The notes beneath the pieces were generated by a model, which was not told where the DNA came from, made no database searches, and was given only the letters and a program-made list of their open reading frames with translations. Below, piece after piece: positions 1,299 to 39,216 of a DNA stretch of 42,981 nucleotides (the stretch's first letter is position 1; each line of letters opens with the position of its first letter). This DNA comes from an uncultured Bacilli bacterium (lineage in GTDB: Bacteria; Bacillota_I; Bacilli_A; RF39; UBA660): NCBI GenBank assembly GCA_947627225.1, contig CANQVB010000003.1, forward strand, positions 1-42,981. The letters are read 5' to 3'. A program made the translations under genes and the position numbers.

Positions 1299-1895
1299 TT
1301 ATTATTTAAAGAGAAAACCCCAATTCATACATAAGTCCATATTCAACAAGTAAATCAAGTGTAGATTTGTTGTTTATGGCTTATCATAGAACGTATGGCT
1401 TACCTGCTACGATTAGTCGTTGTCCTAACAATTATGGATCTTATCAATTTCCAGAGAAATGGATACCAGTTGTAATTTCTAAAGCTTTAAAAAATGAAAA
1501 AATCCCTGAATGGTAAGGGAGAAAATGTACGCGATTGGGTATATATTCACGGTCATAATGTTAGTGCTGATTTGATTGAAAGAAAAGGGAAAGTAGGGGT
1601 TTACAACCTTGGTGGTCATGCTGAGAGAAATAATTTGGAAGTGGTTAAAACCATTTTAAAACAGATGGGAAAAAGTGAAGATTTAATTACGTTTGTGGAA
1701 GATAGAAAAGGGCACGACTTAAGGTATGCAATTGATTCTTCTAAGATTGAAAAAGAACTATCTTGGGATAGAACTTACACTTTTGAGGATGGAATCAAAG
1801 AAACCGTCGATTGGTATTTAGAACACAGAGACTGGATAGAGGATATTTTAGAAGGACATTATAAAGAGGCGTACCAAAATAGTAGGAAAATATAA
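1299..1895 (+). pseudogene. rmlB: dTDP-glucose 4,6-dehydratase remnant; N-terminal Rossmann part missing, two frameshifts
   Basis: Three frames read LLFKEKTPIHT (1299-1331) / SPYSTSKSSVDLLFMAYHRTYGLPATISRCPNNYGSYQFPEKWIP...KIP (1334-1507) / GKGENVRDWVYI...DRKGHDLRYAIDSSKI (1512-1895), all RmlB signatures; breaks near 1332 and 1509. Confidence 0.9.
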
Positions 1896-1930
1896 AAAAA
1901 TAGGCACAAATGAGAGGTGTCTATTTTTTT
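1894..1930. terminator. Bidirectional intrinsic terminator between convergent genes
   Basis: AAAAAAATAGGCAC-9 nt-GTGTCTATTTTTTT with A/T tails on both sides. Confidence 0.75.
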
Positions 1931-3665
1931 ACAATTTTAATAAATCTTCAAGTAAATCTTGTGGCAAATAAGGCATTTGATTATACATTTCTTTTCCGAA
2001 AGGAGTCTTTGGGTAGGCTTTTGTTCCAATTGGTATTTTAATTTCAATAAGCGTAGGTTTATGATTGTCATAAGTGGTTAATACTTTATGAAATTTTTTT
2101 ATAGAATCAACTTGATATGCGCAAATGCCATATGCCTTTGCAATTTTAGCAAAATCTGGTGCAGAATAACCAAATTCACTACAAGAACCATAAAACTGAT
2201 GATTAAATATATCACATTGTTGTTGATGAATTAAACCTAAGGAAGAATTATTAAAAACAAAGATAGTTATTGGTAACCTTTCTTTTTGAATGAGTTGCAA
2301 TTCTTGAATGTTCATCTGCATGCCACCATCTCCTACAATTACATATGTAGTGTTATGCTTATTAGCAATGCATCCTCCTATTGAAGCCGGTAAAGCAAAT
2401 CCCATAGCTCCTAATCCACCAGAAAATATGATTCTTTGATTTTTTCTTATTTTTATTGAATGTGCAGCCCAAACTTGATTTTGACCGACGTCTGCGAAGA
2501 TATAACTGTTGTTATTTGTAAACTGATTAATCAAATTGATATATTGATTAGGTAACCATTCTGGAATTTTATCATCTATATCCTGTAATTGCTTTTTTAT
2601 ATAAGAGCATTTGGCTAGCCATGATTTTTTAAAGGATAAATTCTTTTTTACAAGTATATTGTTCATTGCTTGAATAACTAAATTTACATCGACATTGTAT
2701 GTTAAGTCATTGTGAATAGGTAATTTTAACTCCTCTTTATCAATTTCAATTCGAATGATTTGTGCTTTTGGGTTGAAATTTTCTCTCTTAATTCCAATGG
2801 TGCGGCCGCACATTCGACAACCCAATGAAACGATAAGATCAGCCTTTTGGAATCCAATTATATTTGCATATCTTTGTCCATAGGCAGAACCCATAAAACC
2901 AAAATTATAAGTTGAATTTTCTTCAAGTAAATCTTTTGCTAACATAGAATAGACAACAGGAATTTTTAAGTAGTTCACTAATTTTCTAATGGCATCTATT
3001 GATGCTTTTGTCTTGCTTATTCCATTTCCTAAAACTAATATTGGCTGTTTACTCGCTTCAATTTGGTTCAAAATTGTTTGCCCAATTTTTGAGTAATCAA
3101 TTTTATTTTGCTTTGGTTTTTTAAAATGTTTCAGCGTAGAAATATCAATTTCACTTCTTTGTATATTCATTGGTAAGTCGATAAGTACGGGTCCTTTTCT
3201 TTCTTCCTGCATAATAAATAATGCTTTTTCTAATTCATATGCAATTTCTTGAGCATTTTCAATTTTTACAGCATATTTTGTTATCGGTTGTACAATACGA
3301 ACAATATCACTTTCTTGAAATCCCTGTTGTCGTATGGTATCAACGTTTGTATATTCATAAGTGTTTAATTGTCCAGTAATAAATAAAATCGGCACACTAT
3401 CATAATATGCATCGGCAATTCCTGTTGTTAGATTGATCGCCCCAGGTCCACTCGTAGAATAAGCACAAGCTATTCCACCAGTTGCTTTCGCATAACCAAC
3501 AGCTTCCAATGCAGCACCTTGTTCATGATAACAAACATGATTTTTTACTCTATGATTTTTGCCAAGGGAATCAACTAGGTGAGCAATCATGGTTCCTTGA
3601 TAACCAAAAAAATCAACAATCCCATTTTTATGTAAAAAATCAACTATATAATCACTAACTTTCAT
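1929..3665 (-). CDS. Thiamine-diphosphate-dependent enzyme, acetolactate synthase large subunit/YerE-like
   Basis: HEQGA catalytic Glu, TSGPGAINL, DVGQNQVWAA, GAMGFALPA, GDGG...NN ThDP-binding motif; GGAGG RBS. Confidence 0.9.
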   Translation of the reverse strand: MKVSDYIVDFLHKNGIVDFFGYQGTMIAHLVDSLGKNHRVKNHVCYHEQGAALEAVGYAKATGGIACAYSTSGPGAINLTTGIADAYYDSVPILFITGQLNTYEYTNVDTIRQQGFQESDIVRIVQPITKYAVKIENAQEIAYELEKALFIMQEERKGPVLIDLPMNIQRSEIDISTLKHFKKPKQNKIDYSKIGQTILNQIEASKQPILVLGNGISKTKASIDAIRKLVNYLKIPVVYSMLAKDLLEENSTYNFGFMGSAYGQRYANIIGFQKADLIVSLGCRMCGRTIGIKRENFNPKAQIIRIEIDKEELKLPIHNDLTYNVDVNLVIQAMNNILVKKNLSFKKSWLAKCSYIKKQLQDIDDKIPEWLPNQYINLINQFTNNNSYIFADVGQNQVWAAHSIKIRKNQRIIFSGGLGAMGFALPASIGGCIANKHNTTYVIVGDGGMQMNIQELQLIQKERLPITIFVFNNSSLGLIHQQQCDIFNHQFYGSCSEFGYSAPDFAKIAKAYGICAYQVDSIKKFHKVLTTYDNHKPTLIEIKIPIGTKAYPKTPFGKEMYNQMPYLPQDLLEDLLKL

Positions 3666-3673
3666 GTTACCTC

Positions 3674-4408
3674 CTAAAAATAATCATAGCCACCATGAAT
3701 ATCAATGCTAGCACCATTAATGTATTGATTTTTAATAATTTCCATACAAATGCTAGCCACTTCTTCAGCTGTTCCAAAACGATGAAGGGCTATTTTTTTA
3801 CAAATTCGATTATAGCTCTCAATAGGTCTATCTTTATGATATGGAGTATCAATAAAACCAGGACAGATGCAATTGACAGTAATCTGATTTTCGCAAAAAT
3901 ATTTGACTAAGCTTTTACATAAAGAAATAACAGCAGCTTTAGAAACATTATAAACAAGGGAAGTACTATGAGGGTACTTTCCCATTATGGAGCTTATTAA
4001 AATGATTCTTCCAGCACTGGAATTTCTTAAGCAAGAGTTTAGTCCTTGAATTAGATAAAAAGGACAGTTCAAATTAATGTTCATTGCATTTTCCCAAGCT
4101 GATTTGTCAATTTTTCCAAATTCGCTTTTTTCTGTTACACCACAATTTAATATAAAAACATCTATTTTTTGTGTAATTTGTAGTACTTTCTTACAAAATT
4201 CCATAGCATTTTCATAAGTATTTAAATTTAATTTAATGCAATCAATTTTATTTTTATATTTCTGATTTTCTTCTAAAAATGTTTGATAAGCAATATCATC
4301 TGTTGCATAATTCATTATTACATGATAACCATTTTGTAGTAGGGCAATTGCAATAGCTCTGCCAATTCCTTTTGTTGATCCTGTTACAATAGCATATTTT
4401 TCATTCAT
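3674..4408 (-). CDS. Classical SDR family NAD(P)-dependent oxidoreductase (FabG-like fold)
   Basis: TGSTKGIG glycine motif, YNVSK catalytic YxxxK, CPGFIDT. Confidence 0.9.
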   Translation of the reverse strand: MNEKYAIVTGSTKGIGRAIAIALLQNGYHVIMNYATDDIAYQTFLEENQKYKNKIDCIKLNLNTYENAMEFCKKVLQITQKIDVFILNCGVTEKSEFGKIDKSAWENAMNINLNCPFYLIQGLNSCLRNSSAGRIILISSIMGKYPHSTSLVYNVSKAAVISLCKSLVKYFCENQITVNCICPGFIDTPYHKDRPIESYNRICKKIALHRFGTAEEVASICMEIIKNQYINGASIDIHGGYDYF

Positions 4409-5672
4409 AAATTCTCTCCATTATTTTACTAATAAACATTGATTCATCTGCAAATATTTTTTGATAACTGTTTTCTGATAAAACAGTATTTAAAAAATCT
4501 GATAATTCATAGCGAGTACCATCTTCCTCAAAATCAAAACTATGTTTTCTTGTTTTTTCTTGATTAAAAATTGTAAACGTTTCTGTTTTCCACCATGGTT
4601 TTTCAACAATTACATAACCACTCTTTCCGATAATTGTCAGTTCATCATTTAAATTCATTCCTTGACTTACTTGGATGGTTACAATAGAGTCATCATATTT
4701 TATAATAAGTTTTTGATAGATAATTCTGTTATTTTCGTAGACATTAAATTTATCTATATCAGTATAATGTACACCAAGCAGTTTAGAAACGGCTAGTAAA
4801 GGATAAACTAATGCTTCTTTTATATTTTGATGTCGATTACTATAAGTAATATCAATGCTTTTAACTTTACCAATACTACCAGACTTTATCATTAAAACAA
4901 GTCTAGAAAAACCAGGACAGTAAATTGTATTATTTGCTTCAAATAAGGTAAGTTGCTTTGTTTTTGCTAGATGATATAATTCAAAAATTGCATTTTCTTT
5001 TAAATCTGGATTTCGTTCAAAAAGCACATGTTTGTTATTTTCTAATGCGGTACGAATGTAGTTATATTGATTTTTGATAGAGGTAAAATACAATGCATCT
5101 ACTTTAGATAAAAGTTCTGTAAAGTTTTCTGTATAATTTTCGAGCATATTTTCCTTGCAAACTTTTAAGGCTTTTTTCTGATTTTCATGATAAGAAATAG
5201 TAAATTCTAAACCACTGACATATTTACTTTCTAAAATAATATTTTTTGCCTTTTTGAAGGATCCAACATATCCAATTTTTAAAATTCCAAATTGTTCATT
5301 TCTTAGTTGTGTACTAGATACGCCTTTTGTTCTTTCAAGATAAACAACATCACAATATTCTTTTAAATAGTCAAATTTGCCAAACCAATCCGAACCAAGA
5401 ACAAATTCATCAACGTGATATTTAATAATGTCATTGATTTTTTGCCCCATATATTCTTCTACAATAATTTTATCTGCAAGGCCGGTCTTTTTAATATTTT
5501 CTATTCTTTCGCTTAAGGTTTGTTTTACATTTAATTTTCCTCTTGCTTTATCATATGCATCTGAGGTTACCCCAACAATTAGATAATCTCCTCGTTCTTT
5601 AGCTCTTTTAAGAATGTTATAATGTCCAGTATGAAATAAATCATAAGTACCGTATGTAATAATTGTTTTCAT
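4401..5672 (-). CDS. Fusion of a TagD-like (glycerol-3-phosphate-type) cytidylyltransferase and a Gfo/Idh/MocA-like C-terminal domain
   Basis: GTYDLFHTGH (HxGH) and RTKGVSST motifs in the first ~125 aa; C-terminal KHVL, YCPGF, GSIG, GKSGY...PWWKT pattern; start moved to ATG 5672 behind GAGGTG. Confidence 0.85.
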   Translation of the reverse strand: MKTIITYGTYDLFHTGHYNILKRAKERGDYLIVGVTSDAYDKARGKLNVKQTLSERIENIKKTGLADKIIVEEYMGQKINDIIKYHVDEFVLGSDWFGKFDYLKEYCDVVYLERTKGVSSTQLRNEQFGILKIGYVGSFKKAKNIILESKYVSGLEFTISYHENQKKALKVCKENMLENYTENFTELLSKVDALYFTSIKNQYNYIRTALENNKHVLFERNPDLKENAIFELYHLAKTKQLTLFEANNTIYCPGFSRLVLMIKSGSIGKVKSIDITYSNRHQNIKEALVYPLLAVSKLLGVHYTDIDKFNVYENNRIIYQKLIIKYDDSIVTIQVSQGMNLNDELTIIGKSGYVIVEKPWWKTETFTIFNQEKTRKHSFDFEEDGTRYELSDFLNTVLSENSYQKIFADESMFISKIMERIYE

Positions 5673-5824
5673 CTGTATCACCTCTATCTATCACTATATA
5701 GGATTAAAAACAAGGAAACACATAAATGTGCTAACTTAATTATAATGTTTTTTATCAGATTTAAGAATTTTTGTTTTGCAATTCTAAAAAAATGAAAGAC
5801 ATCACTATTTTAGATTGTAGAAAA

Positions 5825-6982
5825 TCAGTGATGAAAGAAATCTTCTTTTATACATTCTACAATTTGTTTACTCGTGTGAATATAATTTTTTTTAAATAAC
5901 TGGGAAGTTAATTGCTTTCGTTTCTCTTTTAAAGGATCTTTACCACAAGACAAATCTTTTAGAATATTTTCAATGTCATTAAAACTTTTGGCTTGATAAC
6001 AAACTTTGTCAATTTTATGCATTAATTCAGAAAATAAATGTTTATCTTGTGTACACATAATAATTGGTTTTCCTAAAATAAGATAATCAATGATAATTGA
6101 AGAATAGTCTGTAATTAAACAATCAGAATCCATAAATGTCTGAAAATATTCACTTGCTGTGTCATAAAACATATTGGGATACTGAAATTGCTTTAAAAAG
6201 GAAGTTACTTCTTTTTTTTGCATCAAACCTTCCGCAATGAAATTTTGAAAAGCCAATGGATGTGGACGAAATACAAGTTGCATTTTTTGATGTTTATGAA
6301 AAAATTGAATCATTTGCTCTTTGTAATCAAAAAAAGTAGTTTTAACTAAAGCTTGGTCATAGCTCCATCTAGGAGTCCAGATAACTTTTAGTTCTTGAGA
6401 TGGAATTTGATCAAAAGCAGAATAATGTGAAAAATAGTTCTGTAATTCAGTTTCTAAAGCAGGATAGCCTAAATCTATACTATAATGACCACAACCATAT
6501 TCTTTCATTATTTTTTTCACATAATTATATTCATAAGTGTTTTCTGCAAAGAAGAAGTACAAATCTTTTAAGAAGGACCTATTCAGAGATACATCTCTTA
6601 TATTAAGTAAATTAAATCCATAGGGAATATAACAAAGTTTTGTAAATTTTGCAATATTTTCCGTGCTATATGCACTTGGCAAGTAGTTATTGTAAGGCCT
6701 TTGTACAAAAACGTAGTCTGGTTTTTCTTTTTGCAAATCGAACCAACCTTGTTCAGTGACAGCATTGATTACAATATCCCCAAATTTTTCTTTCCAAAAT
6801 GGAAGATTTGTGTTTTTTGGAAATTGACTGATATCTTCTGGAAAAGCGAGCACTTTTATATTAATACAAGGATCTTGTTGCATAGCGTGAATCACATCAC
6901 AGAATTTGTTATAACCTTGCATATATTGACAGATATAATAAATCTTAATTTGTTTAGAGAATATATTTTTAATAAGCTTCAT
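5825..6982 (-). CDS. CDP-glycerol glycerophosphotransferase (TagF/TagB-like) family transferase
   Basis: VIWTPRW, LVFRPHP and SDCLITDYSSIIIDYLILGKPII motifs. Confidence 0.8.
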   Translation of the reverse strand: MKLIKNIFSKQIKIYYICQYMQGYNKFCDVIHAMQQDPCINIKVLAFPEDISQFPKNTNLPFWKEKFGDIVINAVTEQGWFDLQKEKPDYVFVQRPYNNYLPSAYSTENIAKFTKLCYIPYGFNLLNIRDVSLNRSFLKDLYFFFAENTYEYNYVKKIMKEYGCGHYSIDLGYPALETELQNYFSHYSAFDQIPSQELKVIWTPRWSYDQALVKTTFFDYKEQMIQFFHKHQKMQLVFRPHPLAFQNFIAEGLMQKKEVTSFLKQFQYPNMFYDTASEYFQTFMDSDCLITDYSSIIIDYLILGKPIIMCTQDKHLFSELMHKIDKVCYQAKSFNDIENILKDLSCGKDPLKEKRKQLTSQLFKKNYIHTSKQIVECIKEDFFHH

Positions 6983-6984
6983 GT

Positions 6985-7518
6985 TTATTTATCCTTTCTA
7001 GTAGGACTGTTATATTTTAAGTTAAATGCATCGTATTCTATTGCATACCATACTAAATCACAGTAGGTTTCATTTTTTTTAATGTGATTTTTAAAAATTC
7101 CTTCTTTTTGAAAACCGATTTTTTCGTAAAAGGAGATTGCTCTTTGATTACAACTTAAAACATTCAGATAAACTTTATTCAAATCAAGTTCAAAAAAGGC
7201 TTTTCTTAGTAATTCTATTGTGGCAAAGGTAGAAGCCCCTGTTCCATGACTTTTTTCAAGAAATGAAATAGCAAATTCAGCATGTTTATTCGTTTTATCG
7301 ATATTTTTTAAACTGACAGTTCCCAAATAATTATCATTTTCATCTACACATGCATAGTGCAGTTCGGTATTGTTTTGAGCAGCATGCTGAATGAAATTTA
7401 ATACATCAACTTTTGTATAATGATTAAAATCTTTGGCAAAAACTTTAGCAGATAGAGGGGAATGCATCCATGCTAGCATTCCATCAGCATCTTTTTCTAG
7501 AATTTTTCTTAATCTCAT
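6985..7518 (-). CDS. GNAT N-acyltransferase (RimL/PseH-like), probable sugar-nucleotide N-acyltransferase
   Basis: YLGTVSL, AEFAI, HGTGAS, NQRAISFYEKIGF; directly downstream of the aminotransferase; ATG 7518 behind AGGTG. Confidence 0.8.
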   Translation of the reverse strand: MRLRKILEKDADGMLAWMHSPLSAKVFAKDFNHYTKVDVLNFIQHAAQNNTELHYACVDENDNYLGTVSLKNIDKTNKHAEFAISFLEKSHGTGASTFATIELLRKAFFELDLNKVYLNVLSCNQRAISFYEKIGFQKEGIFKNHIKKNETYCDLVWYAIEYDAFNLKYNSPTRKDK

Positions 7519-7533
7519 GTAATTCACCTTTCC

Positions 7534-8622
7534 TTAGTATTGATTTAAAAGATTGATAACATATTCAATTTCTTCTTCGGACATCCCATAGTAAAGTGGA
7601 AGACTTAATTCTTCATTTGCTATTTTAGAAGCAATTTCTAAATCATTCAAATGATCGTTTAAATAAGCTTCTTGTTTCGCAATTGAAATAGGGTAGTGGA
7701 TTCCTGTTTCAACTCCATGTTTTTCAAGATAACTTTTTAAATCATCCCTTGTTTGACAACGAATTGCAAAAACGTGAAAAACATGTGTTCTGTTTGACCC
7801 AATTGTAGGCAAAATAATTTTAGGATTCGTAATTTCAGTAAGATATTTTTGGGCAAGTCTTACACGTTCTTTTGTATATTGATCTAGCCTTTTTAGCTTA
7901 ATTCTTAAGAAACCTGCTTGAAGTTCATCCAATCGAGAATTGATGCCTTTATAAATATGATGATATTTTTCAATAGAACCATAATTAGAAATAGCTCTTG
8001 CTTTCTTAGCAATTGAAGCATCATTTGTAACAATGGCACCAGCATCTCCCAAAGCACCTAAATTTTTTCCTGGATAAAAGCTAAAACAACCAATATCCCC
8101 TAAAGAACCCGTTTGTTTTCCTTTATAAAGGGCATTATGAGACTGTGCACAATCTTCAATTACATATAAATTATGTCTTTTAGCAATTTTAATAATTTCA
8201 TCCATATCAGCACTTTGACCATATAAATGAACCGCAATAATTGCTTTCGTTTTTTTAGTAATGGCATCTTCTAAACCGTTAGCAGATAAGTTATAGGTAT
8301 CAATATCCGGATCCACTAAAATTGGTTTAGCACCAGCATAAGAAACAGCTAATGCAGTTGCAATATAGGTATTGCTTGGAACAATGACTTCATCTCCTTC
8401 ACCAATATCTAAGGCTAGTAGGGCAATATATAATGCTTCTAGACCATTTCCAACTCCTATACAGTATTTGGTTCCAATATGTTCTTTATATTCTTTTTCA
8501 AACTTCGAAACTTCATCGCCTAAGATGTACCAACCTTTTTGATATATTTCTTCGAATTTTTTGGTTATTTCTTCATGGATTTCTTCTTGCATATATTGCA
8601 TCGTCGAAAAAGGAATTTTCAT
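7534..8622 (-). CDS. fdtB: DegT/DnrJ/EryC1/StrS PLP aminotransferase (FdtB/QdtB-type, C3 amination)
   Basis: [37 protein letters not shown] (PLP Lys), NSRLDELQA. Confidence 0.85.
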
Positions 8623-8624
8623 GT

Positions 8625-9047
8625 TTACTTCTCCTTCTTTTTAAATTTTTCTTTATAATACTTTTCGTATTCATCATATCCTCTAATATAGTCATCAATG
8701 TTATAGTGCTCACTTGCTAAAACTAAAAGGACAGCACTATCTTGAAAGTCATACATTTCCCTCCAAATATCTGGACCAATATATAAACCTTCACTTGGAT
8801 TATCTAAGGTAATTATCTGTTCTTCTTCTGGTGTTTTTAAAAGAATTTTTACAGAGCCATGTACACAAATTAGCGCTTGCTCCAAATTCTTATGGGAATG
8901 AAAACCTCTCCGCACATTTTCTTCTACTTCATAGATATAATAAACTCTTTTAATTGCAAAAGGAATTGTATCTTCCCCTTCAATAGGGCTTAATTTACCA
9001 TACTTATCATAATAGGTGTTAAATTTTTTAAATTCTACATTTTTCAT
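8625..9047 (-). CDS. fdtA: dTDP-4-keto-6-deoxyglucose 3,4-ketoisomerase (FdtA/QdtA cupin)
   Basis: [29 protein letters not shown]...DYIR; ATG 9047 behind GGAGG, with ATGA overlap on the upstream stop. Confidence 0.88.
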
Positions 9048-10183
9048 TTTTTTAACCTCCCCATAAGCTCTCTCAAAGGTTTCGTTATTTTCCAAGATTT
9101 AGAATTGTATACTTGTTGTAACTCCTTTTCTAAATTATTTTTGTCGGTTACTAATTTTTTTAATTCATCGTTTTCTTCTAATAGAAGACTCAAGGGGTAT
9201 TGTTCATAAATTTTTCCAGTATCTTGGTAAAAGGTATTTAAGGTATAGTGATATTTTTGTTCTAAAGTTTGGATAATTTTTTCGCTATCGGGGTGTTCAA
9301 ATAGCATGTTAATCGCAATTTGTTTATTTGTAGTCCCAAAGATATTTAAATTTAGTAAAAGTAAAAATTTTTCACAAAATAATTCTTCTTTGGAAGAGGC
9401 ATGTTTGTTGACAAATAAATCTTGAAATCCTTCTTTAAAAATTTGATCATCCATAATGTCAAACATTTCTTTGATGATATGATAATGCTCATTCATATGA
9501 CGTATTAAATTGGTAGTAGTCACACTACTTAAATTTTCATGTTGAAATCTTCGATATCCTACTAGATTTTCATTTAAAATGGCAATATTAAATTCATTGA
9601 TTAAACGAATCCAATATTCAAAATCATGTAGTTGTCGATAGGTGCAATTGTAAAGCCCAATTTTTTCAACTGCTTTTTTAGAAATGACGGAACTAGGATG
9701 GCATAGGTGATTTCCAACTTCGTAGAATAGTCGCATTCTTTTGGCTCGACTTAAATTGTCTGCATGAAAAATTTTACTTGAAAAGTTGCCATCATCTTTA
9801 TAAATATTGCCATTTTCATCGATGATATCAGCCATAGAAAAGACAGCTTCTACATCATGTGTTTCAAGATAGTTGATTTGTTTTTCCAATTTTTCTTGAT
9901 ACCAAATATCATCAGAACCTAGAACAGCAATGTAATCTCCATGACACATGCGCATTAAATGATTAAATGTTCTAACAGCACCTCTATTTTTCTTGGCATA
10001 TATTTTTTTGAGTCGCTTATCTTTTATATGCTTTAATACTTCAACAGTATGATCGGTCGAAGCGTCATCTTCCACAATAAGCTCGATATTTTGATAGGTT
10101 TGATTTAACACGCTTTCTATAGCAGATGCAATATATTTTTCATGATTATAAGATGCAATAATAACACTAACTAATTTTTCCAT
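9044..10183 (-). CDS. GT2 glycosyltransferase with short C-terminal coiled coil and SxSWxxTxPLR motif
   Basis: VSVIIASYN, EDDASTD, GSDD, LHDFEYWIR; C-terminal LEKELQQVYNSKSWKITKPLR. Confidence 0.88.
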   Translation of the reverse strand: MEKLVSVIIASYNHEKYIASAIESVLNQTYQNIELIVEDDASTDHTVEVLKHIKDKRLKKIYAKKNRGAVRTFNHLMRMCHGDYIAVLGSDDIWYQEKLEKQINYLETHDVEAVFSMADIIDENGNIYKDDGNFSSKIFHADNLSRAKRMRLFYEVGNHLCHPSSVISKKAVEKIGLYNCTYRQLHDFEYWIRLINEFNIAILNENLVGYRRFQHENLSSVTTTNLIRHMNEHYHIIKEMFDIMDDQIFKEGFQDLFVNKHASSKEELFCEKFLLLLNLNIFGTTNKQIAINMLFEHPDSEKIIQTLEQKYHYTLNTFYQDTGKIYEQYPLSLLLEENDELKKLVTDKNNLEKELQQVYNSKSWKITKPLRELMGRLKK

Positions 10184-10206
10184 TCAAACACTCCAATCTA
10201 TAAAAT

Positions 10207-10235
10207 ATTATAGCATTCCTTATTTTAAAGGTAAA
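10207..10235 (-). promoter_or_regulatory. Sigma-A-type promoter for the minus-strand block
   Basis: TTTACC-17 bp-TATAAT with extended TGn on the minus strand, about 24 bp upstream of the GT2 start. Confidence 0.65.
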
Positions 10236-10399
10236 CAATTTTAAAGGGATTTGTCTGTATCGTTGCACTGAATTTATTTGGTTTGTGTTTTTTTGAAAAC
10301 TGATAATTCAAAAACTTTTGTTGACAGAGTGCAAAATTAAATTTTGTTTTCATTCCTTCAAATTCGTGATATATTCAATAAGTAGTAAGAAGGTGTTGT

Positions 10400-11299
10400 A
10401 TGAAAAAAAATAGGAAATCAAAGCAAGGGATAAAAAGTATGAATAATGCTCCTAAAAAATTAACTAGGACAAAGAAAAATGAACATTTATATGAAAGCCA
10501 ATTAAGAGAATTAGAAAATACAATCCAACAAAAATTTAATTTTGAAGAAAATTATGTAGAAGATGAACTTGATGTTAGCTTTTTAGAAAGGAAAAAGAAG
10601 AAAAAACCAGCTGTTATAGAGAAAAAAGTGTATCCCGTAAAGCTATTAGTTTGTCTAATAGGTATTCTTATTTTATCTATGACTTTTATTACAGTTCACT
10701 ATATTACTTTTAATCATAACCAAGAAAAAATAGTGACAAAAACTATAAAAAAAGAAGTGCTCTCAGAAAATATATTATTTTTAGGAGATTCCATTACGGA
10801 TTATTATGATGTAAAAAAGTATTACCCCGACCATCATGTTGTAAATAGTGGAATTGCAGGAAATAAAACCTTTGATATTTTAGAAGATATGGAAGGAAGA
10901 GTTTATCAATATAATCCCAGTAAAATTTTTTTGTTGATTGGAACCAACGATTTAGAAGAAAAAAGAGGAATTGATAAAACTTTTGAAAATATTAAAAAAA
11001 TTATAAAGGGAATTAAAGAAAATCGTGGACAAGCAGAGATCTATATAGAAGCAATCTACCCTGTAAACAAACAACTGGATGAAAATATGGTTCATAATCG
11101 TGAAAATGATTCGATTAGGACAATAAATAAGCTTTTAAAAAAATATTGTAAAGAAATGAAGTTAACTTATATTGATACGTATGCATTATTACAGGGTGAA
11201 GAAGGAAATTTAAAAGAAGAATACTCAGATGATGGCCTTCATTTAAATGAAAATGGCTATGAACATTTAACAAAGAAATTAGAAACTTATTTAGATTAA
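10400..11299 (+). CDS. Membrane-anchored SGNH/GDSL esterase-like protein
   Basis: One TM helix at about aa 82-104; blocks GDSIT, NSGIAG, IGTND, DGLH. Confidence 0.88.
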   Translation: MKKNRKSKQGIKSMNNAPKKLTRTKKNEHLYESQLRELENTIQQKFNFEENYVEDELDVSFLERKKKKKPAVIEKKVYPVKLLVCLIGILILSMTFITVHYITFNHNQEKIVTKTIKKEVLSENILFLGDSITDYYDVKKYYPDHHVVNSGIAGNKTFDILEDMEGRVYQYNPSKIFLLIGTNDLEEKRGIDKTFENIKKIIKGIKENRGQAEIYIEAIYPVNKQLDENMVHNRENDSIRTINKLLKKYCKEMKLTYIDTYALLQGEEGNLKEEYSDDGLHLNENGYEHLTKKLETYLD

Positions 11300-11421
11300 A
11301 AAAGATGAAGAAAATTGCAAATAAAAAGGAAGTTCATCTTAATTGGATATTTTCTTCAAAAAATACGTTTTCAAAAAAAATATTGAACAGAAAATATAAA
11401 ATATGATATAGTTTTTGTAGG

Positions 11422-18734: not shown

Positions 18735-21665
18735 GTGGATAAAATTAAGAATTTATTTTTAAGAGATAGTTATCAAGATTTAAAGAAAAATTATGAAGAA
18801 ATTTTGTTGAAAAAGAAAACGACTTGGGATATTGTTGTAATTACAGCTTCCAATAAGATGCAAGCAGATACTTACAAGACAGAATTACAAAAACGAAAAA
18901 AGGAAGGCTTAATTCCTTCACAAACAGATTTTTATGTAATTCCTGACTTAAGAGGAAATAGGATTGGAAGTGGTGGTTCTACTTTATATGTTCTTGCAAA
19001 ATTACAAAAAAAATATGATTTATCGAAGAAGAAAATTTTAATTGTTCATTCTGGAGGGGATAGTAAGCGAATTCCACAATATTCTTGTTTTGGAAAACTT
19101 TTTGCTCCAATTCCTCGCGAATTTGTTCCGGATAGTTCATCAACTTTGTTTGATGAAATCATGATTCAGATGGCAGACATCCCCAATCGCATGGACGAAG
19201 GTATCTTTGTCATGTGTGGGGATGGATTAGTTCTTTTTAATCCATTACAAATTGACTTGCAATATAAAAAGGCAGTTGCCATTTCTATAAAAGTGCCCAA
19301 AGAAATGGGCTGTAATCATGGTGTCTTTGTTTCTGATTCTGAGAATACGATTACAGAATTTCTTCATAAAAAACCTCTTTCTATTCTAGAACAAAAGGCG
19401 GTTCGCAATAATACTGTTGACTTAGATACAGGAATGGTATACCTTCACTCTGAAATCGTTATCAAATTATTATCATTAATTCAAACCCAAAAAACTTTTT
19501 CTCAGTTTATTTCTAGTAAAGTAAGTCTTAATTTTTATGGGGATTTCTTATATCCTTTAGCTAAGAACGCAACCTTAAAAGATTATTTGCAAGAACAAGG
19601 TGAAAAAGAAAAATCTGTGCAGCTTGAAGAATGCAGAAAAAAAATTTGGGAGGTACTTTCTGGATATGCATTACAAATTGTAAAACTAGTTCCTGCTTTG
19701 TATCTTCATTTTGGAACAACAGAAGAAGTTTTAAATATTATGACACAAGATTTAGAAGAATATTATTATCTTGATTGGAAAAGTGAAGTTTCTTCTTACA
19801 TGTCTCAAAATTATCCAATTACAACAATTAACAGTTGGATTCAAGATACATCATTTGCTAAAAACATCTATATTGAAAATAGTATTGTTGAAAATGCAAC
19901 CATTCATTCTAATACAATTTTATCCAACACAACAATTAGAGGGAAAGAATTGCCAAATAATGTGGTACTTTCAACGGTTTTATTGAAAGGTGGCCAATAT
20001 GTTACAAGAATTTATGATATTTCTTGTAATCCAAAAGAACCACTCGCAATCAATACTGTATTTAAAAATGCTACCAATAAAAAATTCTTTCAGTCATTTT
20101 CTGAAACAAGTATTTGGGATGCTTCTTTATATCCGGTAAAGTCTACACTGGAAGAAAGCGTAGAGGCAGCACTTTCTCTTTATAGAATCGTACATAATAT
20201 GGCAACCAGCGAAGAGGAAAAAAGCTATTACGATTCAACTAGAATTAGCATGTGCGATAGTTTTAATCAAGCCAATACAAAAGAAATGAGTATGCAATTA
20301 GAGAATTTGAAAGAGAATATTCTTTTGAAAAAAATAACAACGGTACTTGAAAAAATGGGGCCTTTACAACCTGTTTATGATATTCTTGTGTCATCTTCTA
20401 AACAAAAGAAAATCTTGCAAAAATTAACAGATGCTTTAAAAGATAACAATCATAGTTTCAATATGAGAGTTTACTATTTACTTTCCATGTTGGATCCGAA
20501 AAAACAGGAAGAATATCTAGAGAAGGTTTTTCAAGAAGTAAAACAAAGTGTTGCCAAACCACATGAGAAGGCCTCTCCTAAATTCGAAAAAGATTTCATT
20601 GAATTAAAAAGCCCTGTACGTATTAACCTTGGTGGAGCTTGGAATGATGCACCTCCTTATTGTATTGAAAGGGGAAGTTGTGTTTTAAATGCTGCTGTTT
20701 TATTAAATCATTGTTATCCTATTTCTGTGTGTATAAAAAAATTAAAAGAGCGAAAAATTGTCTTTGAATGCATTGATTATAATGATAAAACTGAAATGAA
20801 AACATTGGGTGAAATTTTAGATTGTAGTAATCCAAATGATTCCTATGCGCTTTTAAAATGTGCTTGTGTAATTAGTGGTTTAGTTAGTGAAAAAGAAACT
20901 TTGCAAGATATATTTACTAAAATTGGTGGCGGAATTCAAATTACAACAAATACTGAAATGATACCCCGAGGAAGTGGTCTTGGGACAAGTAGTATTTTAG
21001 CAGGCACTGTTTTAAAGGCACTATATCAATTTATGGGATATGAAATTGATGACAGCACAATTTTTCACGAAGTTTTATGTTTGGAACAGCTTATGAGTAC
21101 AGGTGGTGGTTGGCAGGATCAAGTTGGTGGACTTGTAAAAGGATTAAAAATAACAAGAACACAGCCAGGTAGTTATCAAAAATTTCAAATTCAAAAGATT
21201 TCTTTACCAAAGAAAATTAAAGAAGAATTAAACGAAAGATTGCTGTTAATCAATACAGCACAAAGACGTCTTGCTCGTAATATTTTGCGTGAAGTTGTAA
21301 AAAAATATATAAAAGGAGATCAAGAATTTTTACAACTTTTAGCGGATGTACAAGTTATTGCACAGGATATGGTAAATGCTCTTGAAAATGGAGATTTTAA
21401 GCAATTTGGAAAGCTATTGGATGAACATTTGGAATATATCAAAAAATTAGATCAAAATTCTACCAACACATGTATTGATTTTATCTTTGAAAGCATCTCT
21501 GATTTAATTGATGGAAAAAGTGTATTAGGCGCTGGGGGTGGAGGCTTTTTAATCGTTTTATTGAAAAAAGGCGTCACTAAAGAGAAATTTGATCAAAGCA
21601 TTATGGAAGTGTTTCAGGATACAGGCGTTATGAGTTTCCAAGTTGAAGTAGAGGAGGAAGTATGA
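18735..21665 (+). CDS. fkp: Bifunctional L-fucokinase / GDP-L-fucose pyrophosphorylase (Fkp-like)
   Basis: N-terminal RIGSGGSTL, HSGGDSKRIPQYS..GKLF, HGVF, FLHK, HFGTT; C-terminal GHMP kinase PVRINLGG, PRGSGLGTSS, GGGWQDQ, GAGGGG. Confidence 0.88.
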   Translation: MDKIKNLFLRDSYQDLKKNYEEILLKKKTTWDIVVITASNKMQADTYKTELQKRKKEGLIPSQTDFYVIPDLRGNRIGSGGSTLYVLAKLQKKYDLSKKKILIVHSGGDSKRIPQYSCFGKLFAPIPREFVPDSSSTLFDEIMIQMADIPNRMDEGIFVMCGDGLVLFNPLQIDLQYKKAVAISIKVPKEMGCNHGVFVSDSENTITEFLHKKPLSILEQKAVRNNTVDLDTGMVYLHSEIVIKLLSLIQTQKTFSQFISSKVSLNFYGDFLYPLAKNATLKDYLQEQGEKEKSVQLEECRKKIWEVLSGYALQIVKLVPALYLHFGTTEEVLNIMTQDLEEYYYLDWKSEVSSYMSQNYPITTINSWIQDTSFAKNIYIENSIVENATIHSNTILSNTTIRGKELPNNVVLSTVLLKGGQYVTRIYDISCNPKEPLAINTVFKNATNKKFFQSFSETSIWDASLYPVKSTLEESVEAALSLYRIVHNMATSEEEKSYYDSTRISMCDSFNQANTKEMSMQLENLKENILLKKITTVLEKMGPLQPVYDILVSSSKQKKILQKLTDALKDNNHSFNMRVYYLLSMLDPKKQEEYLEKVFQEVKQSVAKPHEKASPKFEKDFIELKSPVRINLGGAWNDAPPYCIERGSCVLNAAVLLNHCYPISVCIKKLKERKIVFECIDYNDKTEMKTLGEILDCSNPNDSYALLKCACVISGLVSEKETLQDIFTKIGGGIQITTNTEMIPRGSGLGTSSILAGTVLKALYQFMGYEIDDSTIFHEVLCLEQLMSTGGGWQDQVGGLVKGLKITRTQPGSYQKFQIQKISLPKKIKEELNERLLLINTAQRRLARNILREVVKKYIKGDQEFLQLLADVQVIAQDMVNALENGDFKQFGKLLDEHLEYIKKLDQNSTNTCIDFIFESISDLIDGKSVLGAGGGGFLIVLLKKGVTKEKFDQSIMEVFQDTGVMSFQVEVEEEV

Positions 21666-37348: not shown

Positions 37349-38593
37349 ATGATATTAGAATTTAGTATTGCAAATTTTTTATCCTTTAAAGATAAAGTTA
37401 CTTTTAGTATGCTTGCAAATGCTACAAATGGGTTAGATGATAATTATATTCTATCTAATGATCGAAGGGTGTTAAAAACAAATGCAATATATGGTGCAAA
37501 CGCATCGGGTAAAACGAATTTATTCAAAATATTGACGATTGTAATATCGATGTTGAGAAGTTCAAATATGGTTAATATCAATGCAAAATTGCCAATAACG
37601 CCATTTAAGTTCGATAAAAATACAATCAATAAACCAAGTGAATTTGAAATTAAATTTATTGTTGACGATGTACGATATGTTTATGGATTTGTGGCCGATT
37701 CAAATAAAATATATGAGGAATACTTATATTATTATCCAAATGGAAGAGAAACGAAAATTTTTGACAGGACGAATACGAATGATTATTCTTTTCCACAAAA
37801 AGATGAAAAAATATTAAATGACATAGCTTCTAAAAATGCACCCAATAAATTTTTAATTGCTACTGCAACAAATTGGAATTATGAAAAGACAAAAGTTCCC
37901 TATCAATTTTTAAGCGTAGATATTAATACTTTTAATCATTTAAGTGGTCTTAGAGATTTAGCTCTAAAAGAATATTTAAAAAATGATAAAGAGTTAAAAG
38001 ATTTTGCATTAGATTTTTTGAAAAAAGCAGATTTTAATATAGAAGATTATAAAGTCTTGGAAATAGATGTTCCAGATGATGTATTGGCCGCAATACCTGA
38101 TTTTATTAAAGCTGGAATGAATATGAAAGAAAAACCAAAAGTGTTTACTGCATTATTTAAACATAAAGGTTCTGATGTTCAATTATCCTATGAAGAAGAA
38201 TCAATGGGAACTCAAATTATTTTTTGTTTTATTCCATTTATTATGGATGCATTACATAATAAAAAAGTTGTCGTAGTAGATGAATTAGATAAAAGTTTAC
38301 ATCCATATCTGGTTGAAATGATTGTTCAAATGTTTAATGATCCCGAGATAAATAAAAATGGTGCACAATTAATATTTAATACTCACGATACTAATTTATT
38401 AAAACTAAACATTCTAAGAAGAGATCAAATATGGTTCACAGAAAAAGATGATAAGCATGGAATAAGTGATTTATATCCTTTAAGCGATTTTTCTGTGAGA
38501 AAAACGGAGAATGTTGAGAGAGGATATATGCTTGGTAGATATGGAGCTGTTCCTTTTATCAAAAATGATTTTAATCTATGGGAAGAAGAGTAG
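37349..38593 (+). CDS. ABC/AAA_21-type ATPase (RloA/AbiLi-like)
   Basis: NFLSFKD, GANASGKTN Walker A, EESMGT signature, VVDELDKSLHP Walker B, NTHD, RRDQIWF, Y..GRYGAVP. Confidence 0.88.
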   Translation: MILEFSIANFLSFKDKVTFSMLANATNGLDDNYILSNDRRVLKTNAIYGANASGKTNLFKILTIVISMLRSSNMVNINAKLPITPFKFDKNTINKPSEFEIKFIVDDVRYVYGFVADSNKIYEEYLYYYPNGRETKIFDRTNTNDYSFPQKDEKILNDIASKNAPNKFLIATATNWNYEKTKVPYQFLSVDINTFNHLSGLRDLALKEYLKNDKELKDFALDFLKKADFNIEDYKVLEIDVPDDVLAAIPDFIKAGMNMKEKPKVFTALFKHKGSDVQLSYEEESMGTQIIFCFIPFIMDALHNKKVVVVDELDKSLHPYLVEMIVQMFNDPEINKNGAQLIFNTHDTNLLKLNILRRDQIWFTEKDDKHGISDLYPLSDFSVRKTENVERGYMLGRYGAVPFIKNDFNLWEEE

Positions 38594-39216
38594 AACAGAA
38601 TAGAAAAATTAGTAACGATAGAGTAAGAAAAATCAGAAAGCCAAAAAGTAAAATATTAATAGCAACTGAAGGAAAAAATAAAACAGAAAAGACATACTTT
38701 AGTAATTTTGAAGACGGTAAAAAATCATACAATATTACATTTGCTAAAGGAAATAATACGGATCCATTAAAGTTGGTTAAGATGTTAATCAAGGAAATAG
38801 ATAAGTTAAAATTAGATTTGCAAGATGATAATGCAGCATATTGTATTTTTGATACAGATGTCGATCCCATTAAAAATAAAATCATTGAGGAAGCAATTCA
38901 ATTGGCAAAGAAAAATAATATAAAAATTATTACATCATCACCATGTATGGAACTGTGGTTCTTACTACATTATGACTATACAACTGCAAATATGGATAGC
39001 GAAGAAGTAATTAAAAGGTTAAAAAAGTATTATCCAAAATATGAAAAGAATATGAATATTTATCCTGATGTCATTGAAAGAATAGATTTAGCAATTGATC
39101 ATGCCAAAAAATTAGAAAAGTATCAAATTGATAATAAACGAAGAATAGGAACAGTTGAGGCAAATCCTAACACTGAAGTATATAAAATAGTTGAAGATTT
39201 AATGAAAAAAGGCTAG
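38578..39216 (+). CDS. rloB: RloB-like (AbiLii-like) TOPRIM-fold protein
   Basis: IATEG...TE..YF, CIFDTD (DxD), SPCMELWFLLH, NP.T.V; overlaps the ATPase stop. Confidence 0.88.
   Translation: MGRRVEQNRKISNDRVRKIRKPKSKILIATEGKNKTEKTYFSNFEDGKKSYNITFAKGNNTDPLKLVKMLIKEIDKLKLDLQDDNAAYCIFDTDVDPIKNKIIEEAIQLAKKNNIKIITSSPCMELWFLLHYDYTTANMDSEEVIKRLKKYYPKYEKNMNIYPDVIERIDLAIDHAKKLEKYQIDNKRRIGTVEANPNTEVYKIVEDLMKKG

Follow-up and report, generated by a model that had tools for sequence, protein, structure and literature searches.

A candidate pathway for a CDP-activated, pyruvate-derived polyol phosphate predicted from a four-gene cassette of an uncultured Bacilli bacterium

What might a pyruvate-using carboligase, a reductase, a cytidylyltransferase and a CDP-alcohol phosphotransferase make together, when their genes lie side by side among genes for a wall polysaccharide? 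The question is raised by contig CANQVB010000003.1 of an uncultured Bacilli bacterium (lineage RF39; UBA660; assembly GCA_947627225.1), of which positions 1 to 42,981 were analysed (the window). Four genes, from here on the cassette, encode a thiamine diphosphate (ThDP)-dependent enzyme, a short-chain dehydrogenase/reductase (SDR), a fusion of a TagD-like cytidylyltransferase (CT) domain with a Gfo/Idh/MocA-fold domain (CT-Gfo), and a TagF-like transferase. Judged by sequence comparison, they probably constitute one pathway that makes a CDP-activated, pyruvate-derived extended polyol phosphate for a wall glycan. As for the order of steps, we tentatively favour activation, branching by the ThDP enzyme, reduction by the SDR and transfer by the TagF-like protein; all substrates, the step order and the product are inferred. 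While the kinds of enzyme are known, their combination is undescribed in the searchable literature, in which we found no account of a YerE-type enzyme linked to a TagD-type domain with a dead Gfo half and to phosphotransfer of the LicD/TagF type. The cassette consists of the following features.

1929-3665, minus strand: gene of the ThDP-dependent carboligase (578 amino acids; YerE-like, with an acetohydroxyacid synthase (AHAS)-like fold and three thiamine pyrophosphate Pfam domains)
3674-4408, minus strand: gene of the FabG-like classical SDR (244 amino acids; adh_short), the presumed reductase of the new keto group
4401-5681, minus strand: gene of the CT-Gfo fusion (426 amino acids from a GTG start; the ATG at 5672 gives the 423-residue form on record)
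5286-5672, minus strand: TagD-like CT domain of the fusion (residues 4-132)
4401-5285, minus strand: Gfo/Idh/MocA-fold domain of the fusion, with degenerate motifs (residues 133-426 plus stop codon)
5825-6982, minus strand: gene of the TagF-like CDP-alcohol phosphotransferase (385 amino acids; PF04464)

A preliminary description of the window had reported four co-oriented genes with an 8-bp overlap and an 8-bp gap, inside a polysaccharide locus. The reading-frame coordinates proved exact (SDR and fusion genes overlap at 4401-4408, the gap between ThDP and SDR genes is 3666-3673), and the neighbouring genes agree with the setting. The fusion gene is separated from the TagF-like gene by 143 bp, and all four reading frames are intact. 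The third gene had been described simply as a cytidylyltransferase. This holds for residues 4-132, but the Gfo/Idh/MocA domain, recognizable as PF01408 and by its fold, had been overlooked.

The ThDP enzyme is, by its sequence relationships, YerE-like and no housekeeping IlvB. All three Pfam domains were found in it (PF02776, PF00205 and PF02775, with E values of 1.5e-40, 7.6e-31 and 1.4e-21). Its best solved match was 5ahk_A (329 bits, E 3.6e-97), compared with 256 bits for E. coli AHAS I (6lpi) and 253 bits for 8rph. The last structure has the CDG cofactor motif which PMC12247030 gives for JanthE. With AHAS (IlvB/IlvG/IlvI) the window enzyme shares the three-domain ThDP fold, and its catalytic Glu (HEQGA) and GDGG...NN cofactor motif align with both 5ahk and 6lpi. 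Unlike AHAS, it scores below every NCBIfam AHAS equivalog cut-off (389.2 bits for TIGR00118, with a cut-off of 538.35), lies outside the AHAS outgroup, and is encoded in a genome in which neither IlvN nor IlvC was found. 5ahk is presumably PpYerE (Hampel et al. 2018).

An 86-row tree of ThDP enzymes (IQ-TREE quick search, LG+G4, SH-aLRT support only) was rooted on three true AHAS; duplicates (L001, L003, L012 and L091, numbered as loci of the scan described below) and sequences shorter than 480 amino acids, for example L053, were left out. An 83-row family including the window enzyme splits from the three AHAS (SH-aLRT 100), so that the grouping with housekeeping IlvB which the preliminary description had asked about is replaced by one with YerE-like enzymes. 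YpYerE is absent from the tree, and the label YerE-like stems from the 5ahk match and the neighbour context of the other clades. All 29 ThDP enzymes linked to CT-Gfo, the window's included, belong to one 32-row clade (SH-aLRT 100), the sister of which comprises 24 rows with DegT/RfbH context or no context (support 98). In the remaining three rows of the 32 (L011, L015 and L056), CT-Gfo is missing from the flanks that were fetched. The loci L011 and L015 are truncated or divided between contigs and L056 has full 7-kb flanks; each of the three genomes encodes a CT or CT-Gfo homologue on another contig. Positions specific to the CT-Gfo clade are Q23, T25, L100, D364, A550, T554, N562 and Y566, most of them in a loop (21-26) or in the C-terminal tail (550-566), elements that line and cap the active site in AHAS-type enzymes. 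Elsewhere in the family, three loci of YerE context (L037, L042 and L043) carry two tandem ThDP genes, the second copy being 30-32% identical to the window protein and having a branch length of 1.67.

The host assembly (1.11 Mb in 69 contigs, 91.8% complete) was searched as a whole for ilvC, ilvN and PEP mutase, and none of them was found. For CDP-glucose 4,6-dehydratase the genome search returned just a 22.8-bit match, on a remnant of rmlB, and for RfbH just weak sub-cut-off matches on a DegT gene. Thus, the absence of ilvN/ilvC, PEP mutase and CDP-glucose dehydratase, which the preliminary description had noted for the window, extends over the assembled genome, where the ThDP gene is the sole AHAS-like gene. 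Because of its sub-cut-off AHAS scores, its being the only such gene, the failure to find ilvC/ilvN and its place in the tree, we do not regard the enzyme as a housekeeping acetolactate synthase. Two candidate roles were ruled out: i) that of AHAS in branched-chain amino-acid synthesis, on the scores, tree placement and lack of ilvC/ilvN in the genome just given, and ii) a phosphonate pathway, as no PEP mutase was found and the build of the ThDP enzyme is the three-domain one of AHAS and not that of a phosphonopyruvate decarboxylase. In the host lineage the ThDP gene is accessory. No relatives at E <= 1e-60 were found in 24 genomes of the same family (five of the same genus), and the only two matches elsewhere in this search had identities of 30% and 34%, the former (G001) being an AHAS above cut-off.

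In the yersiniose-type pathway, as outlined in PMC9306805 and PMC12247030, CDP-4-keto-3,6-dideoxyglucose receives from YerE a C2 unit derived from pyruvate, and YerF then reduces the product. The chemistry proposed for the cassette resembles that of YerE/YerF (yersiniose A in Yersinia pseudotuberculosis; PpYerE, ErwE, JanthE), in that an AHAS-fold ThDP enzyme of the same protein family, according to best solved match and tree, would place the pyruvate C2 unit on a CDP-activated carbonyl and an NAD(P)H reductase would act next. Unlike the yersiniose systems, however, the cassette occurs in a genome without genes for a CDP-3,6-dideoxy-4-ketohexose (glucose-1-phosphate cytidylyltransferase context, CDP-glucose dehydratase, RfbH), and its TagD-type cytidylyltransferase partner points to a small acyclic acceptor. 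The cassette product would also leave by phosphotransfer, while yersiniose does so by glycosyl transfer. Furthermore, the classical SDR has 244 amino acids, whereas the proteins beside the ThDP gene in YerE-context loci have about 300-310, so that its role is probably analogous to that of YerF and less likely orthologous. The SDR protein matches adh_short (E 1.3e-43), stays below all NCBIfam cut-offs and weakly matches butanediol dehydrogenase models. With its paralogues in the same genome it shares 22-29% identity, compared with 35-43% for SDRs encoded beside related ThDP genes and 70% in the closest loci.

Relatives of the ThDP gene were inspected with one genome per species; at least 593 matched stretches (of 600) contained one, and the best 80 loci were kept. 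CT and/or Gfo was encoded in the flanks of 28 of these 80 loci, and both were in 26. The 28 linked loci contained an SDR gene in 21 cases and a DegT-type (or RfbH-type) neighbour in none. The other 52 were of a different kind, with DegT-type neighbours in 35 and an SDR in two. Five of the DegT-context loci were sampled; glucose-1-phosphate cytidylyltransferase and RfbH scored above cut-off in all five, and CDP-glucose 4,6-dehydratase in three.

When the 31 other loci of the 32-row clade were considered, CT(-Gfo) was present in 28 and SDR in 24 (no more than 200 bp from the ThDP gene in 23 of the 24), and 19 loci combined CT, SDR and LicD. The exact set of the window, TagF-like together with SDR, occurred in none of the 31; L017 has a TagF-like gene and no SDR. 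Hence, of the co-occurrence of four families that the preliminary description had proposed to look for, the ThDP, CT-Gfo and SDR part was borne out, while the TagF-like part was not. A LicD or TagF-type gene was detected in 25 of the 32 clade loci (23 LicD, two TagF-like) and in none of 35 loci with DegT or YerE context. Since the 15 seeds of the local LicD profile came mostly from these same loci, this contrast is weightier than the absolute number. From these counts, the conserved unit is the ThDP enzyme with CT-Gfo, usually accompanied by the SDR, and the transferase is interchangeable, mostly LicD. The proposal of a YerE/YerF-type carboligase and reductase, TagD activation and TagF transfer therefore keeps its support in the YerE-like grouping and the wide co-occurrence, but has to be modified as to the CT domain, which is fused to a degenerate Gfo half, and as to the transferase.

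The closest loci, with about 70% identity, come from metagenome-assembled genomes of rabbit gut. L002, L003 and L004 retain the gene order CT-Gfo, SDR, ThDP, and L001 is cut inside the SDR gene. In L004, the genes directly upstream of CT-Gfo (5691-6743) encode two small proteins, 158 and 172 amino acids long, that belong to no known family. A Blautia-type order is CT-Gfo, long LicD, a LicD-like protein of about 400 amino acids, ThDP, SDR. Carriers include Blautia wexlerae and B. schinkii as well as Ruminococcus, Roseburia, Mogibacterium and Eubacterium genomes. Since some of the carriers are cultured (B. wexlerae MSK.20.46, B. schinkii MSK.6.26, B. aquisgranensis CLA-JM-H16 and Eubacterium pyruvativorans i6), the prediction is directly testable.

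The same counts bear on a different acceptor. The preliminary description had offered, as an alternative, C2 branching of a dTDP-keto sugar, i.e. of a dTDP-keto-6-deoxyhexose made by genes next to the cassette, which are these.

6985-10183, minus strand: GNAT, DegT aminotransferase, FdtA-type 3,4-ketoisomerase and GT2 genes (Pfam/NCBIfam), upstream of the cassette
1322-1844, plus strand: remnant of rmlB (dTDP-glucose 4,6-dehydratase) adjoining the cassette, two frames matching TIGR01181

FdtA, DegT and GNAT do lie directly upstream on the same strand, and YerE-type enzymes branch nucleotide-keto sugars, as stated in PMC9306805. However, no DegT-type gene was present in any of the 28 CT-Gfo-linked flanks, and the CT domain and the TagF-like protein would be left without a role. 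The trio was found without any dTDP-sugar genes in L002, L003 and L004, and the sole dTDP-glucose 4,6-dehydratase match of the host genome is the remnant, whose two frames cover TIGR01181 positions 145-208 and 204-320 with the N-terminal part missing; no second TIGR01181 match was found anywhere in the 91.8%-complete genome. Because the trio travels without such genes and the only dehydratase match is broken, we consider dTDP-sugar branching the least credible of the explanations discussed here. The four upstream genes are probably a separate module for a dTDP-3-acetamido-3,6-dideoxyhexose that shares the transcript of the cassette. The broken rmlB gene (the stretch 1322-1895 of the plus strand) coexists with an adjoining FdtA/DegT/GNAT module that needs the product of dTDP-glucose 4,6-dehydratase.

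We next consider the CT domain and the transferase. CTP_transf_like matches the fusion at residues 8-127 (E 1e-16), and residues 4-132 align over their full length with TagD/TarD (2b7l, 117 bits; 1coz, 114 bits; about 48% identical by manual count), with both the HxGH (HTGH) and RTxGxSST (RTKGVSST) motifs kept. The domain is the sole PF01467 match in the genome. The TagF-like protein belongs to Glyphos_transf (PF04464; E 5.5e-14, 52.3 bits with a cut-off of 22.1) and scores 38.6 bits for TIGR04396, below the cut-off of 125. It keeps the TagF C-terminal motifs P-x-W, r-p-H and SDCLITDYSS, and was aligned to residues 522-643 of S. epidermidis TagF (3l7i); this alignment does not reach the N-terminal catalytic His of TagF. 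The cassette differs from TagD/TagF systems in that its CT domain, in contrast to the separate TagD protein of about 130 residues, is fused to a Gfo/Idh/MocA domain of about 290 and falls short of the equivalog cut-off for TagD (107.6 bits for TIGR01518, with a cut-off of 165.4), in that relatives mostly use LicD, and in the ThDP enzyme and SDR tied to it.

Similarity to TagD/TarD with motifs kept, together with TagF motifs of the CDP-glycerol site, would also suit an ordinary teichoic-type decoration. The CT domain would then make CDP-glycerol, the TagF-like protein would transfer glycerol phosphate, and the ThDP enzyme and SDR would be unrelated, serving acetoin/butanediol metabolism or another modification, with which the weak match of the SDR to butanediol dehydrogenase models is in keeping. 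This is improbable in our view. The whole ThDP clade is linked to CT-Gfo and LicD/TagF genes, the ThDP and CT-Gfo genes abut or overlap the SDR gene in one operon, and the ThDP enzyme groups with sugar-branching YerE-like enzymes, unlike the catabolic AlsS (231 bits with the AlsS model, 112 bits with the structure 1ozf).

In the second half of the fusion, PF01408 was matched at residues 146-247 (33.6 bits with a cut-off of 24, E 7.4e-8). In an AlphaFold model of the whole fusion protein (mean pLDDT 89.5), the C-terminal half of about 290 residues has the predicted two-domain Gfo/Idh/MocA fold, its Foldseek matches being 4had, 3evn, KijD10 and GnnA (TM 0.76-0.84, normalised to target). In Gfo/Idh/MocA enzymes, catalysis and cofactor binding depend on the EKP lysine and the Gly-rich motif, and K97V and K102A mutant structures among the fold matches are consistent with these roles. 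The window fusion has GYVGSF in place of the canonical Gly-rich GxGxxG/A, and ERN (F-ERN) in place of EKP. Blautia-type fusions read G-I-V-T-D-D and S-D-T-P at these sites.

In an alignment of 155 fusions (35 from the loci and 120 listed database matches), EKP was kept in 99, and 98 of those also kept GxGxG. Among the 29 ThDP-linked fusions EKP was kept in none, and the Gly-rich motif was likewise non-canonical. Six fusions of the loci have no ThDP neighbour; three of these have canonical EKP (L005, L006 and L010) and three have ESP (L007-L009 of Collinsella). A tree of 82 fusions unites the degenerate forms in one 50-row clade (support 98), which holds 27 of the 29 ThDP-linked proteins; the other two, L017 and L020, are placed with Collinsella in a different clade, of ESP/ETP type (support 100). 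In the SDR-less loci L017 and L020 (8770-11150), a polysaccharide pyruvyl transferase and an FrhB-like protein are encoded right after the ThDP gene, and CT-Gfo is of the ESP/ETP type.

The CT half shows another picture. When canonical (n=99) and degenerate (n=50) fusions were compared, the consensus, at 80% or more in each group, differed in only two of 135 columns (S/T at position 66 and K/I at position 86), while about 70 columns shared their consensus at 90% or more in both groups. By these alignments, fusions with a ThDP partner have a degenerate Gfo half, while their CT half is essentially unchanged. The near-invariant CT half suggests that its substrate is the same or very similar in both systems, and thus that they diverge after activation.

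Degeneration of one domain could also mean that the cassette as a whole is a decaying, non-functional remnant, the more so as a broken rmlB adjoins it and the genome is small. Yet the four frames are intact, the ThDP, CT and TagF-like proteins retain their catalytic motifs, and the same degenerate Gfo state is conserved over the 50-row clade. Because everything outside the Gfo half is preserved in frame and motif, we regard decay as very improbable.

The model that we favour can be described as follows. The TagD-like domain would join CMP to a C3 phosphate, giving a CDP-linked C3 carbonyl, in the simplest case CDP-dihydroxyacetone from dihydroxyacetone phosphate (DHAP); routes that cytidylylate a ketose phosphate before reduction offer a parallel to this step. 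The YerE-like enzyme would then decarboxylate pyruvate and add the acetyl C2 unit onto the CDP-linked carbonyl, as YerE does on a CDP-4-keto sugar, and the FabG-like SDR, in the role of YerF, would reduce the new acetyl ketone. Finally, the TagF-like enzyme would take the phospho-alcohol off the CDP donor and attach it to the glycan as a phosphodiester. The Gfo half would be a catalytically dead relic, and we propose that the loss of its reductase activity spares the keto group, which is then available for branching. As the substituent we predict a C5H12O4 alcohol in phosphodiester linkage, which would be 2-C-(1-hydroxyethyl)glycerol if the favoured order applies and a linear 1-deoxypentitol if the steps run the other way. 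For substituents of the deoxypentitol type, the literature searched yielded metabolomics papers only.

In that opposite order, the ThDP enzyme would join pyruvate with glyceraldehyde-3-phosphate into a 1-deoxy-pentulose-5-phosphate, as DXS does, the SDR would reduce it to 1-deoxypentitol-5-phosphate, and only then would the CT domain activate and the TagF-like protein transfer it. The ThDP enzyme and SDR would have taken over the function of the Gfo reductase, whose half then decayed. The co-occurrence data are the same for both orders, and motif loss in the presence of the ThDP enzyme fits functional replacement as well as it fits preservation of the keto group. The adjacency of ThDP and SDR genes in 23 of 24 loci is in line with it, too, and in CDP-ribitol synthesis reduction comes before activation. 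YerE-like enzymes, moreover, take many acceptors in vitro, as described in PMC12247030. On the other hand, the sister clades are predicted to act on CDP-linked ketones, and the CT half differs in just two of 135 columns though its substrate would have grown from C3 or canonical size to a methyl-terminated C5. The SDR-less loci L013, L017 and L020 would need activation of a keto-phosphate anyway. On balance, we think the opposite order unlikely, though a serious rival.

Several points weigh against activation before branching, or against a single pathway in general. If the Gfo half is dead, the carbonyl requires a TagD-like domain that accepts a keto-phosphate, for example DHAP, and we know of no TagD-type enzyme that does. 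Being about 48% identical to TagD, the CT domain may make plain CDP-glycerol. An unchanged CT domain would also fit the opposite order if its pocket reads just the phosphate-proximal, glycerol-like end of the substrate. The call of a dead Gfo half is itself based on motif loss and on the motif roles given above. Lastly, the SDR is absent from seven of the 28 linked loci, of which L013, L017 and L020 have full 7-kb flanks, and the trio of L004 stands without a transferase outside any sugar locus, between gatAB and znuA.

The logic of the favoured pathway can be compared with two further known systems. In CDP-ribitol synthesis (TarI/TarJ, Bcs1), as in the cassette, a cytidylyltransferase and a single reductase, separate or fused, work on a ketose phosphate, and the CDP-arabinitol (AbpA/AbpB) and Campylobacter CDP-6-glucitol routes follow the same combination of cytidylyltransferase and reductase. 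These two-step CDP-alditol routes differ from the cassette in using IspD/LicC-type transferases with reductases of the medium-chain (MDR) or SDR type, whereas the reductase half of the cassette is degenerate and C-C bond formation is added. The methylerythritol phosphate (MEP) pathway begins with DXS, DXR and IspD, i.e. with ThDP-dependent condensation of pyruvate and a C3 unit, reduction and CTP activation. The proposed cassette would likewise give a CDP-linked C5H12O4 alcohol, an isomer of methylerythritol. The enzymes are non-homologous, however (AHAS fold versus transketolase-like, SDR versus DXR, TagD-type versus IspD), and the cassette product would be bound for a surface glycan, that of MEP for isoprenoids.

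The fusion family extends far beyond the cassette. At least 7970 of 8000 scored database candidates matched at E <= 1e-20, and source names of fusions were just "Gfo/Idh/MocA family oxidoreductase" or "choline-phosphate cytidylyltransferase". Canonical fusions with intact motifs (L005, L006, L010; database proteins P0146-P0241, one of them named from Methanobrevibacter) are adjoined by LicD in all three loci examined (L005, L006 and L010). By analogy, they may represent a further two-step CDP-alditol route. They might also correspond to pneumococcal Gtp2 plus Gtp1 of the CDP-2-glycerol system, proteins for which PMC1391919 names no families. In Collinsella (L007-L009, about 5600-11400), the ESP-type fusion occurs with LicD, a class-V aminotransferase and an FrhB-like Fe-S protein, without a ThDP enzyme. 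The aminotransferase is generic, with its best NCBIfam matches far below the cut-offs, and an NCBIfam scan of the neighbours of canonical and ESP-type fusions gave no match for the LicD-like proteins of about 400 amino acids. The Collinsella locus could, by analogy again, be an amino-alcohol (serinol-type) variant of the same logic.

A bolder extension, which we offer as speculation that is unlikely to hold in full, makes CDP-dihydroxyacetone the hub of this large fusion family in gut microbes. The canonical Gfo half would reduce CDP-dihydroxyacetone, while the inactivated reductase of the derived clade would let a YerE-type enzyme, or perhaps an aminotransferase in the Collinsella type, capture the ketone, and 2-C-(1-hydroxyethyl)glycerol phosphate would occur on the walls of commensals such as Blautia wexlerae. 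No mention of CDP-dihydroxyacetone was found in the literature searched on CDP-glycerol dehydrogenase. Were this hub real, it would amount to a non-homologous parallel of the first three MEP steps and to a pseudoenzyme domain that created a new pathway.

If the single pathway exists, many gut Firmicutes bear a surface substituent that no structural study has reported, and such substituents shape phage receptors, antibody epitopes and innate recognition. The tertiary-alcohol chemistry of YerE-type enzymes would then cover small acyclic CDP-polyols in addition to CDP-hexoses, a point of interest for biocatalysis. Krug et al. 2024, who surveyed YerE-like enzymes in silico, chose clusters by similarity to deoxy-keto-sugar pathways, according to PMC12247030, and may have listed the CT-Gfo-linked clade. 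For a very large, unannotated family of TagD-Gfo/Idh/MocA fusions, the model supplies a concrete function to test, and the cassette clade is a clean case in which the inactivation of a domain correlates with a changed pathway partner.

Judging from its gene content, the setting of the cassette is an ABC-transporter-type wall-polysaccharide locus that runs from the window start to about 23.9 kb, the farther genes being GDSL, acyltransferase-3, a TagH/TagG-like ABC transporter, further GT2 and an Fkp-like gene. GC content is 0.26-0.33 over this stretch, compared with 0.32-0.39 at 24-37 kb, where housekeeping genes such as mutS are located. The top promoter-like site lies at 10235-10207 on the minus strand; such sites are at chance level in the window (56 found, 55.1 expected). 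A terminator scan called none after the ThDP gene. Although the genome measures only 1.11 Mb (sampled relatives have 0.6-2.4 Mb), over 20 kb of it is given to a wall-polysaccharide locus whose GC is lower than in the housekeeping stretch at 24-37 kb. Within the locus, the Fkp-like protein (976 amino acids; 18735-21665, plus strand) combines a fucose pyrophosphorylase domain with a GHMP kinase, which suggests salvage-type supply of GDP-fucose in a very small genome. Outside the locus, between mutS and nusB, a gene pair encoding an AAA_21 (AbiEii-like) ATPase and a RloB-like protein (37349-39216, plus strand; GC 0.26-0.28) looks like a small defence island.

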